The translations under genes and the position numbers were made by a program. Below, piece after piece: positions 2,371-43,431 of a DNA stretch of 56,437 nucleotides (positions within the stretch are counted from its first letter, which is position 1; each line of letters starts with the position of its first letter). The stretch lies in contig JAUQYZ020000229.1 in the NCBI GenBank assembly GCA_030587475.2, positions 1 to 56,437 on the forward strand. Direction: 5' to 3'. Source of the DNA: Candidatus Sigynarchaeum calidifontis. Lineage in GTDB: Archaea; Asgardarchaeota; Lokiarchaeia; Sigyniarchaeales; Sigyniarchaeaceae. A model generated the notes under the pieces. It was not told the origin of the DNA and searched no databases. It was given only the letters and a program-made list of their open reading frames with translations.

Positions 2371-3255
2371 TTATTTCGCCTCCTCCATCTTGTATTCAAG
2401 TATTTTATTCAACAAACTCTCATAATCCTCGATTTTATATTGCATTAACATCGAGTTTGAGTGAGCCGTTATGAAGGCCACGAATAGATCTTTCAGATTT
2501 TCGACGTCCTTGTTGACAAAGTCGATTAGACTTTTTTCGTCGGGGTCACCCGTGTAATTTTTTGGTGCCGTACCGAAACCGAAGCGTGCATTTTCCGGCA
2601 AGTTATCGAAGAACCCGAAAGCAGAATTGCCCTGGAACGTGAAGAAAACCATGTACCTGCTGCGAACGGATTCCACGACCTCGGTGAGCTGCACCGACGG
2701 GTACAACTCGGCAAGAAGGAGGTCCTCGTCGTTTTTAATGACATAATAGGGGGTAATGGGGGTTTGTCCCTCCTTGAGCATTTGCTTGGGAGGCATGCTC
2801 ACGAACGGCTGCTTTTCCTCGAGAATTTCCGCCAGGTCGGGGCGATTGTTCTTTTCCAGCACTTCCTTTATCTCGTTGTAGGCCTGGTCGTAATCGGTCT
2901 GGTACGGGACGAGACCGCTCAAGTAGATGCTGATGCAAGAGAACACCGCGTCGAGCACGGGGCGACGGCCGGATTTCTTCGTTTCCGGCCGGATTGTGCC
3001 CGGCCAGTAGCGGATCGTGCTGTAGGTGAAACCGAACGCGCCGAGAAAACCACCGGTGAGCAAGAAAAACTTGAAATTTTCCCCGCCTTCTTGCTCCCCG
3101 AACAATTCTTGGGCCTTTTTCACCAGTGCCTCCTCCACCTCGACGCTGTGAATTTCCGAGTGGACCGAAGGAAACAGCAACCAATCAGATTTTTTTACCA
3201 TTGATCGAACCACGCGCGCGTGATCATTAATTCCCGATCCTTGTAATATGGTCAA
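2371..3255 (-). CDS. Hypothetical protein directly upstream of the GTPase, possible internal duplication
   Basis: 294 aa ORF ending 3 nt before the GTPase ATG. Start may be ATG 3201. PSV...FF...AFGF occurs twice. Confidence 0.7.
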   Translation of the reverse strand: MTILQGSGINDHARVVRSMVKKSDWLLFPSVHSEIHSVEVEEALVKKAQELFGEQEGGENFKFFLLTGGFLGAFGFTYSTIRYWPGTIRPETKKSGRRPVLDAVFSCISIYLSGLVPYQTDYDQAYNEIKEVLEKNNRPDLAEILEEKQPFVSMPPKQMLKEGQTPITPYYVIKNDEDLLLAELYPSVQLTEVVESVRSRYMVFFTFQGNSAFGFFDNLPENARFGFGTAPKNYTGDPDEKSLIDFVNKDVENLKDLFVAFITAHSNSMLMQYKIEDYESLLNKILEYKMEEAK

Positions 3256-5470: not shown

Positions 5471-7804
5471 TTAGAAAGGAGTCTCACCGAACATGAAGAT
5501 GAAAAATGCCATGACGTGGTTCGCGCTCGCGTCTTGCACCTCGGCGACCACGTAACACCCGTCGCCAACGACATCGGCGGGTTCCACGTCCACGATATAA
5601 GGAACGACCGGGTTGGGGATGACCGGGCCTGCCGGGGGCCCCAGAGGCTCGTTCGTGGTCGCGTTGTACTTGTGCACGTAGATCACCCAATCAGGCATGA
5701 ATGCACCGAGATCCGTGCCCGCGAAGGTTATCACGTTCATGTAGATCATGAACGGCCCCGGCACGTGCAGCGTGTTCGACACCCTGCATCGGTAACCATC
5801 GAAAATCGTGCCCGTCAGGCCATCGGTCGTGCACGTCGCGTTATACGGGTATACAGGGATGCCCGGCGCCCGGGAGTAATCCGGCTCGTTGGGCGGGTTG
5901 GTCGGCTTGTTGAACATCTGGTATGCGGGCTTGAACTGGACGGTCACGTTGCAAGCCGCGGTGTCGTTTAAGTTCATCTTCACGAGGCGCACGTTGTCTA
6001 CCTTCGAGGGGTCGATCGGGATAGGTGCTTGCGTGGAGCCCGGCGTGTTTTTCACGGTATAATGGTAGATCTCGGTGCTGCCGTCCTTGCGTTCGATGAT
6101 CACCGTCACCGAAACGGCCTGGCCTGGCTGCGGCGTTATCCAGATCTCCAGCGGCGCGGACCCCAGCATGGCGAAATCCTCGACGGCGGCACCATAAGGC
6201 GCGACGCTTTCGGTTGACGTGTAACCGGCATCGCCGACAGGCATCGACTCGTCGGGTTTCACCGCCGGGACGCCGTTGTTGTCCTCCGCGGACCCGTCCG
6301 CCCGCCACTGGTAGTACCGGCGGAGCAATTCGGCAAAAGACAGGCCGGTCGCGGCCTCGGCGGCTTCGCGGAAGCCCACCGACCCGCTCATCGAGTTCGT
6401 CAAGTTCTTCAAGACACCCTCGCCGAACGTCTCGTTGATGAACTTGAGCAGCAAGAAGCCATTGCAATAGTCACCATGGGTGAACCCGAACCTGGTCGTC
6501 CCGTTGACCGTGCCATTGCCGAACGTCGGCATGTTCAGGCTCTTGCCGTGCTTGTCCCATGACTGGCCTGGGATGCCCCTCGAATTCACGATCTGGCCGA
6601 TGAGCGTGTTGACTTGCTGCACGGTCAGGTTGTAGTTCCGCGCCGCGCTAACCGTGCCCCAATACGTCGCCTCGCCCTCGTAAAAGGCTTCATTTCCCTT
6701 CTTGATGATGCCTTGCTCGTACTGGTAGGCATGCACGACCTCGTGCTCGACGTTGTACTTCAAATCGACCTTACCCCGGAACTGGCGGGCCGCATCCCCG
6801 GACCGGATCTCGTTTCCCACCCAAATGTAGATCGACCCGTTCGGATACGTGGCGCCGAAGGATGAATTGGCACCCTCGTGGACGCCGATGTGGATGTCGA
6901 GCACGTTGTCATTGCCCAACTTCGGGCCGCCAGCACGCCCGAATCGCGCGAGGTACCTTATCGTTGCCTCGACCATCTCCTTTATCTCGCCCGGGGAGAT
7001 GCCAGGCGTCGGATGCGCGTTCGTGACCGCGATGGGAACGGGGTTGGGGGACTGCGCCCCCACGTACGCGGGGTAATGATCGAGGAACCCGTTGTAGATC
7101 ACCTCGGCGACGTCGGGCACGCTCCCGTTTCCCGCCGGGTCGTCCACGACGTTGTGCAAGTTGTTGAAGGAGGCGGGCGTGGGGGTGTCGTTGTACCAGT
7201 TGCATGACCTGTCTTGGTCCCAGCCCCAGATCGAGATCGATTCGGAATCATTGCTGGTCGAAGCCCCGCCATCCGAGATGTCCCAGCCGGCAAGCCCGAG
7301 AGGCGCCGCTAACCCGCCATAGCAGACATAATCGATGAGATATTCCGTCCCGTTGTCAAAATAGAGGAGCACGTGCCCGGACTGCTCATCCAACAGCCTC
7401 GCCGGGACATCGAGATGCACGACGGCGCTCAACGTGGTGGCATCGATTGACGTGGATCCAGCATCGCCGCGGATGCACGCGTGCCAGAACTCGCCGAACC
7501 CGGCGATCTCGGGGATCGAGGTCTTCGGAACGATGACGTTCCCGTCGCGATCCCTTGTCTCGATGTACCAGTTCTTCAAGGAATTCGTTGAAAAGTTCGT
7601 GAAAGAATACACCTCGATGAACTGGTCGTTCAACAATATGCCGCTGTCAGACTTGTACCTGATTTCGGAAATCATGACCTTAAATGGCTTTCCAGGCGTG
7701 CTGCCTGGAAGGAGGAGGAAACCAAAAACGATGGCCAATGATGCACCCGCGACCATCGCCGAAATCGCGATGGCCCTGGCGTGTTTTATTGTTCTCGGCG
7801 CCAT
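5471..7804 (-). CDS. Secreted or membrane-anchored protein: lamin-tail-like domain plus HEXXH zinc metallopeptidase
   Basis: N-terminal hydrophobic anchor; ISEIRY...DQFIEVY...IDYVCYG...PTPA resembles LTD; HEVVH followed by FYEGEATY is gluzincin-like. ATG 7804 preferred over 7939. Confidence 0.72.
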   Translation of the reverse strand: MAPRTIKHARAIAISAMVAGASLAIVFGFLLLPGSTPGKPFKVMISEIRYKSDSGILLNDQFIEVYSFTNFSTNSLKNWYIETRDRDGNVIVPKTSIPEIAGFGEFWHACIRGDAGSTSIDATTLSAVVHLDVPARLLDEQSGHVLLYFDNGTEYLIDYVCYGGLAAPLGLAGWDISDGGASTSNDSESISIWGWDQDRSCNWYNDTPTPASFNNLHNVVDDPAGNGSVPDVAEVIYNGFLDHYPAYVGAQSPNPVPIAVTNAHPTPGISPGEIKEMVEATIRYLARFGRAGGPKLGNDNVLDIHIGVHEGANSSFGATYPNGSIYIWVGNEIRSGDAARQFRGKVDLKYNVEHEVVHAYQYEQGIIKKGNEAFYEGEATYWGTVSAARNYNLTVQQVNTLIGQIVNSRGIPGQSWDKHGKSLNMPTFGNGTVNGTTRFGFTHGDYCNGFLLLKFINETFGEGVLKNLTNSMSGSVGFREAAEAATGLSFAELLRRYYQWRADGSAEDNNGVPAVKPDESMPVGDAGYTSTESVAPYGAAVEDFAMLGSAPLEIWITPQPGQAVSVTVIIERKDGSTEIYHYTVKNTPGSTQAPIPIDPSKVDNVRLVKMNLNDTAACNVTVQFKPAYQMFNKPTNPPNEPDYSRAPGIPVYPYNATCTTDGLTGTIFDGYRCRVSNTLHVPGPFMIYMNVITFAGTDLGAFMPDWVIYVHKYNATTNEPLGPPAGPVIPNPVVPYIVDVEPADVVGDGCYVVAEVQDASANHVMAFFIFMFGETPF

Positions 7805-24566: not shown

Positions 24567-25667
24567 CTAGAAAATCTTCTGATAACGTCGCAACGACGAC
24601 GCGATCTTCTCGCTGAGATCGACCTTTTCCTTTAACCTGTCTATCCGCAATGACTCGCGATCGATATCGAGCGTTTTTAACACCGCTTGGAAGAATCCAT
24701 CGCTGGCTTGGTTGGCGGGGGACAATTCTTCGGCTGCGATCGCGTATTTTCCAGCCGCTCGCAACGATAGCAAGTTTTCAGCCGGTTCGTCCTTCGGAAC
24801 GATGAGCGTGCTCACGAGATCTCCTATTGTCATCATGAAGGTTTCCCACCGGGCCGGGGCGCCAATACATTCGAGAACTTCGCGCTCTACGGGGGAGATC
24901 TCGTTTCCATACCACGTTGGTGAGATGATCGTTATTTTCTTGTCGAATTCTTTTAATATTTTCCTGAAATCTGGACAAGAAAAGATCAAATAGGTAGATA
25001 TGAGATCGGTGGGAATAATGACGATCCCCGCGGAATTACCGATAGGATCTCGAATCGAATCGCATAATTGAGCATCAACCAGATTTTTTGGCGAGATGTT
25101 GATTCCATCGCTAATTACCTCTTGTTGCAGGCCGCTAACCTTGTCATTCTCCACGCCCGTAGCTTTTACATGTCGGGTCCTGACCTGGTTCTCGACCTCG
25201 ATGATGTATTGGCGCAGAGGCACGCGGGTTTTCGCACATTCGACCGTGATGAGCGGGAAAGTCTTGAAGAGAGGGTAGATAGTTTTCTGGTTCAAATGGA
25301 ACATGGACACGAGTTGCATGTAAAACGAATGTTGATCGGTTCGATTTTCGAAATGGGATGCATATCGTCCCAGCATGTTGATTACGGGGGGTAATCTGAG
25401 GGGGTTGTAGGAATCGAACGTGCTCGCAAGCACCTTCAAGATGTCACTCAAGGCCTTGAATTCTCGCACTTTTTTCTCCAACAAGTCGAACAGCTCGAGG
25501 TGGTATGAAAGGCGTTTTGACGGGTCGGGGTGCTCGATCGAGAAATCCACGGAATTGTTGAAAATGTAATTGACAGCATAGTTCGTGTCGTCCACGGCCT
25601 TCAAGAACGGGCTGGGGCGGCCTCCACAACAGATAAGCGTGATCGCGTGTTTTTTTACTGAGAACAT
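24567..25667 (-). CDS. Degenerate CofD/UPF0052-like protein
   Basis: Paralog of the N-terminal half of 27326..29527 (DF..HPDP...Y.LE, YNPL, P.RQYII, PTDL, SP.W...I..VERE.LE). Layout resembles CofD but the GGTG/PDLD catalytic motifs are lost. Confidence 0.6.
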   Translation of the reverse strand: MFSVKKHAITLICCGGRPSPFLKAVDDTNYAVNYIFNNSVDFSIEHPDPSKRLSYHLELFDLLEKKVREFKALSDILKVLASTFDSYNPLRLPPVINMLGRYASHFENRTDQHSFYMQLVSMFHLNQKTIYPLFKTFPLITVECAKTRVPLRQYIIEVENQVRTRHVKATGVENDKVSGLQQEVISDGINISPKNLVDAQLCDSIRDPIGNSAGIVIIPTDLISTYLIFSCPDFRKILKEFDKKITIISPTWYGNEISPVEREVLECIGAPARWETFMMTIGDLVSTLIVPKDEPAENLLSLRAAGKYAIAAEELSPANQASDGFFQAVLKTLDIDRESLRIDRLKEKVDLSEKIASSLRRYQKIF

Positions 25668-34950: not shown

Positions 34951-35121
34951 CCGAATCCAAATTATTTACTTTCGTTTTTTCTTGATCGGGTATGGTAGAA
35001 ATCAGTCGCGATGCTTTCGTGTACCAGGAGCGAGACAGGCTATCCTTTCTCCCAGGTAGCTCTTTATTGAAGAGAACCCAACAGATAATGACGTCAAGCG
35101 GAGCTAGACGCGGGATCCTTT

Positions 35122-35191
35122 ACCTCAGACGGCTCCTCTCTGTTTTCATCATTCTTGCAGCAAGTCATTCGGAGGTAACATCATCATCGGC
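35122..35191 (-). ncRNA. C/D-box guide sRNA (dual guide)
   Basis: GCC-g, C box ATGATGA (35187-81), 12 nt guide, D' ATGA (35168-65), CTTG/CAAG mini-hairpin, C' ATGATGA (35152-46), guide, D box CTGA (35128-25), GGT terminal stem. Both guides fit conserved LSU rRNA PTC sequences. Confidence 0.8.
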
Positions 35192-35231
35192 GATTCATAT
35201 CGTGAACCCGAAGAGAAATAAGCGCTGCCAG

Positions 35232-35819
35232 TCACGGAACCAAAAACACGCGCGCGTAGTGTAACAAGCCAGCGTTGAAAGCAAAAGACATGTTGCACCC
35301 CTTTGCTGCAAGAAGCTTGTCCACGTCGGTAGGCGCGAGCCGATCCTCGAATGGAGGGCCAGGCAAGTATCTTTTCTTCTTGAATTCAACGATGACAATC
35401 TTCCCACCATTTTTCAAGACACGAAATAGCTCCTTGAGAACCTGGTCGGCCTCCTTGTTGACGACGAAGCCATGCAACACGTTCGCGACGAGACAAGTGG
35501 TGACGCTGGCATCCGGCAGGGGCAAGTGTTTCGTGGCATCCGCGATAGAGGCCTCGATGTTGATGGCGCCAAGCTCCTTTACTCGCACCTTGACCTTTTC
35601 GATAGCACCAGGGTCAACGTCGATGGCGATCACCTTTCCTGCCGGGCCGATGAACTTGCTCGCGGCCTCGATGGCTACATAACCGTCCCCGCAGCCGAGA
35701 TCGAGAAACGTTTCTCCCTCTTTCAAGCCGATCTTTCGCAAGAGCTTCCCGGGATCGATGAGCCCGCGCGTGCTGCGGCCGCCGTGCTCGTGACGATGTG
35801 GTTTACCGTTTTCATCCAT
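35232..35819 (-). CDS. Class I SAM-dependent methyltransferase (UbiE/Methyltransf_31-like)
   Basis: FLDLGCGDG, IAIDVD, ADA, VLH...ELFRVLKNGG. Confidence 0.9.
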   Translation of the reverse strand: MDENGKPHRHEHGGRSTRGLIDPGKLLRKIGLKEGETFLDLGCGDGYVAIEAASKFIGPAGKVIAIDVDPGAIEKVKVRVKELGAINIEASIADATKHLPLPDASVTTCLVANVLHGFVVNKEADQVLKELFRVLKNGGKIVIVEFKKKRYLPGPPFEDRLAPTDVDKLLAAKGCNMSFAFNAGLLHYARVFLVP

Positions 35820-36017
35820 AACGCATCACTCCTGGTGTAAACAGATAGATCTCCTTTAAGGTGTTTCCGCTTTTCAAGAGCGATGACCTCGATGCCCATC
35901 ACGGCAAGCGAGAGAATTTTCCCTTGCCCATCATGGAAAGGAAGAGAATCGTTGGTCAAGGAATTGAAAAAGAAAGACCAGGCCGATAGCGACAAGAAGA
36001 TGATGGAGGCAATCGAA

Positions 36018-36050
36018 CTGGATGGATTTCTTGTAACCAACGCCATCCAG
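36018..36050. terminator. Inverted repeat just downstream of the thioesterase gene, possible terminator or processing hairpin
   Basis: ctggatgg (36018-25) and ccatccag (36043-50) form a perfect 8 bp stem, 8 nt from the stop codon. Confidence 0.35.
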
Positions 36051-36058
36051 ACGCCATC

Positions 36059-42315: not shown

Positions 42316-43431
42316 TCATTTTCCTATGAACTCGTGCAGGCTGAGCCGGTGAATCACTTGCGGGCCGTTGTCCAGGTATTCCCGGCGCTGGATCCAGCCC
42401 CTCGGGTCGCCGGACGAGGCACGGGCGATGCATGCCAGGCCGCGCCAGAGCGCTATATCCGGGCGCTCGGGAACCGTGAATTTCACGGTAGAAAGGTCGG
42501 GCAAGGCCGATGCAATGCCCTTTTCCTTGCCTCGCGATGTCCCAGACAACGCGGCACGAAATTCCCGATTCAACCGCTCTTGCCAGCCGGGGAACCGCGC
42601 GGCCGACCCCACCACGGGGATGGAATCGAGAGCAGCGATGAATTTCTTGCGGCTTGCCTCGTCTTCCAATCCGGCAATGACATCATCGATGCATTGAATC
42701 ATGGCTTGCTGGATCGGCAACCCCTCGAACCCGAAATTATCCGGATCCGACCGGAAATAGACATCGAAACACTCGTCACGCTCGCCGTCCACCGCGATGT
42801 TCTCGCCATCGGGAAGGACGTACGTCGCCCTGCGTGGCGTGGTGCTCCCGCCTTGCCCGAAGACCGAGCCAAGCTTGTTAACGAGGTCAACCGTGTATTC
42901 ATACCGCCAGTATTCACCCAGAGGGATCTTCTTGTTATTCGCGAGGAGCCGGCGGACGTATTGATATACCTTGTGGAGCGAGCATTCGAGGCTCTTGATC
43001 TCGCGCGAAAGGGGAAGACCATCGATGCACGGCACGATGCTCGTGTAGGTGTCCCCGAGCAAGGCGACGAGGCCCGTTTTCTTCCCCGTGGCCGCCATCG
43101 CCGCGTTGCTATCGCTGGCCAAGCACAACGCCGGCACTGAGAACGTCTCGAACAGGATCTCGGCTATTTTTTCGAGGTCACGGCGCGGGGTCATGTCCTT
43201 GTATAGCATCGCGACCGGGTGCTCGGTTGGATCGATGCGCATTTCCGTGTAAAACATGTAATGCCAGATCTTTTCGATGGCCGAGAAATCTTCGATGATG
43301 CCGTTCTCGACGGGATATGCCAATTTTAATACTCCAGAGAGCTGCAGTGCTTCCTCGCCCACGTAATATTCTCGGGCGTACCCGCCGATTTCAACGTCGT
43401 AATAATGGTATTCTCTCGTGAACGGGTTCAA
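42316..43431 (-). CDS. Divergent actin-family protein (Asgard actin/ARP-like), N-terminally truncated
   Basis: YVGEEA...LKLAYPVENGII...EKIWHYMFY.EMRIDP.EHP...EKIAEILFETFSVPA, YVLPDG, PER...W.G...WI.R.EY...GP.VIHR all align to actin. The phosphate-1 DxGS motif is absent. Confidence 0.9.
   Translation of the reverse strand: MNPFTREYHYYDVEIGGYAREYYVGEEALQLSGVLKLAYPVENGIIEDFSAIEKIWHYMFYTEMRIDPTEHPVAMLYKDMTPRRDLEKIAEILFETFSVPALCLASDSNAAMAATGKKTGLVALLGDTYTSIVPCIDGLPLSREIKSLECSLHKVYQYVRRLLANNKKIPLGEYWRYEYTVDLVNKLGSVFGQGGSTTPRRATYVLPDGENIAVDGERDECFDVYFRSDPDNFGFEGLPIQQAMIQCIDDVIAGLEDEASRKKFIAALDSIPVVGSAARFPGWQERLNREFRAALSGTSRGKEKGIASALPDLSTVKFTVPERPDIALWRGLACIARASSGDPRGWIQRREYLDNGPQVIHRLSLHEFIGK

Follow-up and report, generated by a model that had tools for sequence, protein, structure and literature searches.

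The window (the whole 56,437-nt stretch of DNA analysed) carries, on its minus strand, a predicted 70-nt box C/D sRNA that begins exactly 40 nt after the stop codon of a class I SAM-methyltransferase gene (ORF 35232-35819, minus strand; Pfam Methyltransf_31/25/11). A sequence-only reading of the same DNA had described a dual-guide sRNA here, box by box and at this distance from the methyltransferase, and on re-examination its anatomy was confirmed letter for letter and the distance proved exact (Table 1). K-turn geometry can be read directly from the sequence at both motifs. At the termini, the GCC/GGU stem is followed by a 3-nt GAU bulge and then by a GA facing the GA of box D, whilst internally the GA of box D' abuts the 4-bp CUUG/CAAG hairpin, which is succeeded by an AAU bulge and the GA of box C'. 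The closing stem comprises 3 bp only.

Table 1. Elements of the predicted sRNA and its upstream region, in window coordinates; sequences are given as RNA of the minus strand.
Feature	Position	Strand	Description
Whole box C/D sRNA	35122-35191	minus	70 nt; sequence read, strict scanner match, covariance model R1 66 bits
Terminal stem, 5' strand GCC	35189-35191	minus	partner GGU at 35122-35124
C box AUGAUGA	35181-35187	minus	fits RUGAUGA consensus; UGAUGA invariant in alignment A3
D' guide UGUUACCUCCGA	35169-35180	minus	12 nt; N+5 is U at 35173, facing LSU G2446
D' box AUGA	35165-35168	minus	GA abuts hairpin stem; same GAAUGA context in members from genus g49
Internal hairpin CUUG-CUG-CAAG	35154-35164	minus	canonical stem of C'/D' k-turn, then 3-nt bulge AAU
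C' box AUGAUGA	35146-35152	minus	sequence read; first GA 3 nt past hairpin stem, the k-turn geometry
C'-D spacer AAACAGAGAGGAGCCGU	35129-35145	minus	17 nt; D guide is its last 12 nt, GAGAGGAGCCGU; N+5 of the D guide is G at 35133 (sequence read), facing C2510 in the LSU of relatives
D box CUGA	35125-35128	minus	consensus match; invariant in alignment A3
Terminal stem, 3' strand GGU	35122-35124	minus	pairs with GCC as C-G, C-G, G:U
TATA-like UUAUUU	35216-35221	minus	25-30 nt upstream of the sRNA 5' end; sequence read

The two spacers differ in length. The C-D' spacer is 12 nt long, and the C'-D spacer measures 17 nt, or 14 nt if the second AUGA is taken as the C' box; relatives have 12-14 nt. 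MAFFT aligns this second AUGA, not the first, with the C' box of the homologs from the distant genus g49, suggesting that an AUG triplet may have been inserted in the C'-D spacer. Since archaeal guide spacers are usually 10-12 nt long (PMC7994747), a spacer of 17 nt may lower activity. Upstream, the hexamer UUAUUU is AT-rich in a genome of 54% G+C and lies at the usual archaeal TATA distance, and is possibly the sRNA's own promoter.

The surroundings of the sRNA are only partly shared with the other genome of the genus, G001. When C335 1275-2265 of G001 is compared with 35192-36058 of the window, the thioesterase gene beside the locus is 92% identical at the DNA level. In G001, the methyltransferase gene between the thioesterase and the sRNA is replaced by unrelated sequence, and the downstream neighbor is also different. 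Elsewhere in the window, an actin-related protein is encoded at 42346-43383 (minus strand, 439-aa open frame), matching Pfam Actin in two pieces of 107 and 37 bits; the same genome has two more actin genes, a full-length one on contig C144 (436 bits), which fits the Asgard assignment, and one on contig C59.

C/D sRNAs are rarely annotated in metagenome-assembled genomes. The curated Rfam families gave nothing at gathering score for the sRNA region. At a relaxed threshold there were 17 matches, all of them on the minus strand and comprising 16 box C/D families and one scaRNA. The best of these sub-threshold matches was archaeal sR1, with 24 bits where the gathering score is 45; the SNORD49 model reached 9.1 bits (gathering score 37), and the snoR38 model gave no match at E values up to 10. 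A strict scanner was set to accept only sites in which a C box is followed, 10-13 nt later, by an NNGA D' box, and which also have a C' box with no more than one mismatch, a D box and a closing stem 3 bp or longer. It returned four matches on both strands of the 4.99-Mb genome, the present sRNA among them, and zero in reversed and complement-only control sequences. The proteins of an sRNP are also encoded, with fibrillarin (284.9 bits) and Nop5 (229.9 bits) as neighbors on contig C116 and L7Ae (94.4 bits) on C154; a search for relatives of the fibrillarin returned only distant Thermoproteota and methanogens. A second copy of the sRNA was sought in the assembled genome and none was found. The three other strict-scanner candidates lie on contigs C10, C22 and C122 of this genome, that on C10 containing, for example, the stretch ...GGAUGAUGA-AGUCAAGAUUGA-CCGA....

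The sRNA belongs to a set of similar RNAs in other Asgard genomes, which we define through a covariance model, R1, as a C box, an NNUUAYCYCC guide, a hairpin, a C' box, an RGRGYYGN guide and CUGA, the two guides being directed at LSU domain V. The double-guide pattern occurs in 19 of the 400 genomes of the phylum that were scanned, namely two of the present genus and 17 of the 22 of genus g49; the reversed pattern occurs in none. R1 was built from 17 members, and its score for the present sRNA (66 bits, E 2e-13) is that of a sequence within its own training set. The sequence-only reading had proposed a covariance search of other Asgard genomes, and this search recovered more distant members in six further families: f27 (4/4), f9 (3/3), f11, f30, f31 and f19. 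When 121 genomes of the order were searched with the sRNA by BLAST, only short chance matches and the C-box/guide stretch of G001 came up, so that patterns and a covariance model were required. A MAFFT alignment of the four first-found homologs misplaced the 3' half and was left out of the model. In one g49 genome (G229, contig C187) two copies of the family lie approximately 500 nt apart on opposite strands, at 24790-24866 (minus) and 25348-25416 (plus), scoring 78 and 73 bits.

Conservation within the family is of the kind expected of a structured RNA. The homolog in G001 carries the guides UGUUAUCCCCG and GGGAAGAGCCGU and a hairpin that is wholly different in sequence and still paired. The terminal stems vary and yet pair (GCC/GGC in G001, GGUC/GACC in G031, GGGA/UCCC in G023, CACU/AGUG in g49), and the hairpins of the homologs are formed by unrelated sequences pairing at the same place, such as GUUGU/ACAAC, CGCCCUU/AAGGGCG and UAUAUGCU/AGCAUGUA. 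Pairing is kept in 88.9% of the stem cells of the family alignment, compared with 27-69% when the partners are slid against each other, and four pairs are changed on both sides; the individual helices stand at 86.8% (terminal stem) and 90.6% (internal hairpin).

These observations bear on another explanation, in which the boxes arose by chance within the 3' untranslated region of the methyltransferase gene, or the locus belongs to a small protein-coding ORF, and there is no guide RNA. Mechanically called ORFs do overlap it, one on the plus strand (34992-35264) and one on the minus strand (35149-35298), and its minimum free energy fold is no better than that of shuffled sequences (z = 0.09), a null result that is expected, as the k-turns of C/D sRNAs are left unmodelled in such folds. 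However, the control scans were empty, boxes and guides are kept whilst the stems covary, and the sRNA of G001 is present without the methyltransferase gene; we consider this explanation extremely improbable. Taken together, the strict scan, the family and the stem covariation bear out the dual-guide assignment of the sequence-only reading, and on this comparative evidence we conclude that the box C/D sRNA at this locus is real and uncatalogued, and that it belongs to a double-guide family conserved in Asgard archaea. The model R1 provides a ready means of annotating such RNAs in Asgard genomes.

LSU and SSU rRNA searches found neither gene in the assembled genome, nor in its three family-level relatives, and the pairing of the guides was therefore judged on the LSU of other Asgard families. 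Positions are in E. coli numbering, taken from an annotated E. coli 23S with a +1 offset from the standard that was corrected via U2552/G2553 and A2451. The D' guide forms 11 contiguous pairs (one or two of them G:U) with C(C/U)GGGGGUAACA of the relatives' LSU, within 2442-2453, and the D guide forms nine (one G:U) with CGGCUCUUC at 2507-2515, the next position, 2516, being an A x C mismatch. On the rRNA of these relatives, the N+5 pair of the D guide is a Watson-Crick G-C2510 and that of the D' guide is a U:G2446 wobble. The sequence-only reading had placed the D guide on 2507-2515 with C2510 at N+5, and the D' guide on 2443-2453 with G2446 at N+5, and both placements are borne out here. It had further described one wobble and one mismatch in the D' duplex; the wobble, at G2446, stands, and the mismatch does not, since most Asgard LSUs have G2448 and hence a C-G pair. 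In the organism's own LSU we would expect CGGGGGUAACA or CGGGGAUAACA at 2443-2453 and CGGCUCUUC at 2507-2515.

Among LSU and SSU rRNA, the best matches of the two guides both fall in LSU domain V, at a distance of 64 nt from each other. Against LSU and SSU, the observed score was reached by 4% of shuffled D' guides and 12% of shuffled D guides, and by 1.8% of the latter when only the 100 nt around the D' site were considered. The best matches to tRNAs were weaker or fell in dubious long-intron calls, and the genome elsewhere contains two perfect 11-mers complementary to the D' guide, which is the chance level. The shuffle figures are modest on their own, and the weight of the argument rests on conservation.

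This conservation extends to changes in the guides that follow changes in the rRNA of the same genome. In family f27 the LSU has U2510 and A2448, and the guides of the same genomes carry A at N+5 of the D guide and U at position 6 of the D' guide; in G310 the LSU has A2444 and G2448, and the D' guide of that genome carries U10 and C6. In G031 and G222 the guides likewise match the LSU of the same genome. The family is conserved across many Asgard families with guides that track rRNA substitutions within single genomes, and of the computational evidence it is the covariation at the predicted methylation site that supports the target assignment most strongly. For g49, cmsearch recovered only LSU fragments, a strict pattern led to a bacterial-looking contig, and a looser pattern found the LSU of G222. 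A separate observation concerns G001, which contains a candidate second C/D sRNA (L092, G001:C42:415-477, minus strand) with a D guide GAAGAGCUGG followed by CUGA; this guide may also place C2510 at N+5, with one G:U pair.

Together, these data enabled us to propose a model for the action of the sRNA, to which we assign a probability of roughly 80%. In this model, the sRNA would assemble with L7Ae, Nop5 and fibrillarin, and its two guides would pair with nascent 23S rRNA in domain V, at sites 64 nt apart. The D guide would bring C2510 to face the nucleotide five positions upstream of box D, and would most likely direct 2'-O-methylation of C2510. The D' guide, pairing with 2443-2453, would place G2446 at its own N+5 position; in the rest of the family a C-G pair is found there, which would direct formation of Gm2446. 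In the present copy the U:G pair would instead probably leave the D' arm only holding the rRNA, whether as a folding chaperone or as a second anchor. The anatomy, the conservation of the family, the covariation of guides and rRNA in relatives and the presence of the three sRNP proteins are shown by the data, and we infer that the sRNA is expressed, assembles into an RNP and directs methylation, as well as the sequence of the organism's own 23S.

Position 8 of the D' guide is U in the present copy only and C in all other family members (approximately 30 relatives), including that of G001 in the same genus, and position 2446 is G in every LSU examined (nine Asgard, E. coli and the seven archaea of PMC4644070). 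A Watson-Crick pair at N+5 has been reported as essential for methylation (Lui et al. 2018, PMC6009581), rendering methylation of G2446 by this copy doubtful, and conserved guides with a non-Watson-Crick N+5 have been read in the same study as interaction-only or chaperone-only. In the survey of Dennis et al. 2015 (PMC4644070), 16 of 262 double guides were of the N+5-mismatch kind. It is therefore probable that the D' arm of the present copy is a binding or chaperone arm that methylates poorly or not at all. With its U at N+5, it could be a chaperone-only arm that is methylation-dead by nature, and the U-for-C variant found here in nature offers a test case for the Watson-Crick rule.

It could be argued that both sites are methylated, either because the sRNP tolerates U:G at N+5 or because the organism's own 23S has A2446, making the D' duplex perfect. 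The D' duplex is otherwise unbroken, with 11 pairs against LSUs of the G2448 type, and the organism's 23S is missing from the assembly, so that position 2446 is judged on relatives. A variant sequence of the peptidyl-transferase centre was also what the sequence-only reading had taken a perfect match to imply. However, pattern scans for the A2446 rRNA context found no match in the GTDB species genomes and only one in the JGI metagenome contigs, an E. coli-like 23S, with no archaeal sequence among them. A variant rRNA as the cause of the wobble was rejected on the basis of these scans, with the proviso that the rRNA of this particular lineage may be missing from the collections. Given the uniformity of G2446, the C in the guide of G001 and the Watson-Crick requirement, methylation at both sites is unlikely.

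A second, unrelated C/D sRNA of this genome touches the same nucleotide. It lies on contig C119 at 6514-6590 (L063, approximately 75-151) and has AUGA, the type of D' box seen at the present locus, in both of its D-type boxes. LSU 2437-2449 is complementary to its D guide, GUCUCCGGGGUAC, which likewise sets U opposite G2446, here at the far end of the duplex, a point that speaks for the two-site reading. In a search for homologs of the C119 sRNA in G001-G003, the BLAST and pattern matches were all chance matches in coding sequence.

The peculiarities of this copy might alternatively mark a family member that is in decay or has relaxed in function, perhaps still transcribed, in which neither guide is efficient. 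Three derived features unseen in the approximately 30 relatives would fit such a history, namely the U at the D' N+5 position, the 17-nt C'-D spacer and the A x C mismatch at 2516, and so would the rearrangement of the locus relative to G001, where the thioesterase gene is closely similar and what separates it from the sRNA is not. Against this, none of the four boxes is damaged, nor is either k-turn geometry or either guide core; the G facing U2513 also occurs in f27 and is hence no sign of decay, and the assembled genome is without a second copy that could take over. We regard decay as very unlikely, and prefer the model in which the D guide directs methylation of C2510 and the D' arm probably serves only to hold the rRNA.

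In most respects the sRNA resembles the double-guide sRNAs already described from archaea (PMC4644070, PMC6009581), about half of archaeal sRNAs being double guides with sites within 100 nt of each other. Like them, it falls within 50-70 nt, has C, D', C' and D boxes, k-turns and the N+5 rule, and addresses paired rRNA sites less than 100 nt apart in the hotspot around the peptidyl-transferase centre; some members of that group also have a non-Watson-Crick N+5 in one guide. Single-nucleotide indels that shift the targeted site between members, known from the Pyrobaculum sRNA families (PMC6009581), have their counterpart in the Asgard family, in which the C-D' spacer is 12 nt in g49 and the present sRNA and 11 nt in G001, G023 and G031, where it would move N+5 to G2447. 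The differences are the D'-C' linker, a true hairpin here as opposed to the short k-loop linker of known archaeal sRNAs, the 17-nt C'-D spacer and the Asgard source. Our literature search found no published description of Asgard C/D sRNAs.

The same two nucleotides also appear to be addressed by sRNAs of other archaea. In our own parse of the sequences in Additional file 1 of PMC4644070, sR7 of Methanopyrus kandleri (MKAsR7) has a D' guide, GGUAAUCCCCGG followed by CCGA, that places G2446 at N+5, and a D guide, CGGAGAGCCGG followed by CGGA, that places C2510 at N+5, the same target pair within one sRNA; the label K7 appears twice in the 2446/2510 block of the 23S alignment in that paper. The sequence-only reading had proposed that one Asgard sRNA combines two targets conserved in eukaryotes. 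The pair was indeed found, but given the M. kandleri sRNA the combination of 2446 and 2510 is not an Asgard speciality. M. kandleri is a euryarchaeal hyperthermophile, and its sR7 has variant boxes (AUGACGA, CCGA, CGGA) and no similarity to the present sRNA beyond boxes and guides, so that common descent and convergence cannot be separated. Single targets of the pair are found in N. equitans sR03, whose D' guide AAUUAUCCCCGC followed by CCGA places G2446 at N+5, and in S. acidocaldarius sR7 (Sac-sR7), whose D' guide CAAAGAGCCGA pairs with 2506-2514 (both from the supplement of PMC4644070, our own parse); the partner guides of these two sRNAs differ. The M. kandleri and N. equitans guides, together with the known hotspot, fit an old archaeal, or convergent, need to stabilize the region of the peptidyl-transferase centre. 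The present sRNA is an ordinary kind of archaeal RNA, one of several aimed at these sites.

Published tables of rRNA modification sites enabled us to place the two targets among those known in eukaryotes (PMC11542601, PMC8817022, PMC9941101, PMC4463414). The G site, the C site and the equivalent of Um2552 are Gm2816, Cm2880 and Um2922 in A. thaliana, and Gm4392 (formerly Gm4362), Cm4456 (formerly Cm4426; SNORD49A/B) and Um4498 in human; in yeast they are Gm2815 (snR38), a C site that is not methylated, and Um2921, and in E. coli the corresponding nucleotides are G2446, C2510 and Um2552. The spacings between them, 64 nt from the G site to the C site, 42 nt from there to the Um2552 equivalent and 106 nt overall, are equal in E. 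coli, insertion-free Asgard LSUs, A. thaliana and human; for yeast the 106-nt spacing alone applies. On the strength of these conserved spacings, the predicted equivalence of G2446 with the snR38 site and of C2510 with the U49 site holds, and so does the mapping of the sequence-only reading to human Cm4456 (Cm4426)/SNORD49 and yeast Gm2815/snR38-SNORD1. The present sRNA most likely guides Cm2510, whilst its D' arm, lying at the snR38 site, is probably non-methylating in this organism.

Plants and animals share both snoRNA families, snR38/SNORD1 (RF00213) and U49/SNORD49 (RF00277), as conserved RNAs (Hoeppner and Poole, PMC3511168), and methylation of the two nucleotides themselves is likewise conserved between them. 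By position these snoRNAs address the same rRNA nucleotides as the Asgard sRNA, but they are two separate RNAs in eukaryotes whereas the Asgard sRNA unites both guides in one, and there is no significant match between it and either model. Very few archaeal sRNAs were found to share a target position with snoRNAs of LECA age (PMC3511168), and the present work adds two positional equivalences to these, in the closest archaeal relatives of eukaryotes. It is tempting to see the Asgard double guide as the direct archaeal forerunner of the snR38/SNORD1 and U49/SNORD49 functions, inherited vertically and later split into two snoRNAs. We consider this scenario distinctly unlikely, and the data do not point to a special link between Asgard archaea and eukaryotes.

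Some Asgard LSUs depart from the usual spacing through insertions in domain V between the two target sites. In G222 (L130, G222:C44, approximately 1420-1470) the insertion is approximately 46 nt long and is flanked by the inverted repeat GUGUAGA...UCUACAC, and in G157 (L155) it is approximately 32 nt long; the distance from site to site is 112 nt and 98 nt, respectively, compared with the usual 66 nt. These insertions could be mini-introns or expansion segments. Finally, an LSU fragment in a g49 bin (L131, G224:C57, approximately 1430-1520) reads GGGGAUAACUGAG and GAUGUCGUCUCUUCC, with U at 2509; it is unlike the other g49 LSUs, and may belong to a contig from another organism.
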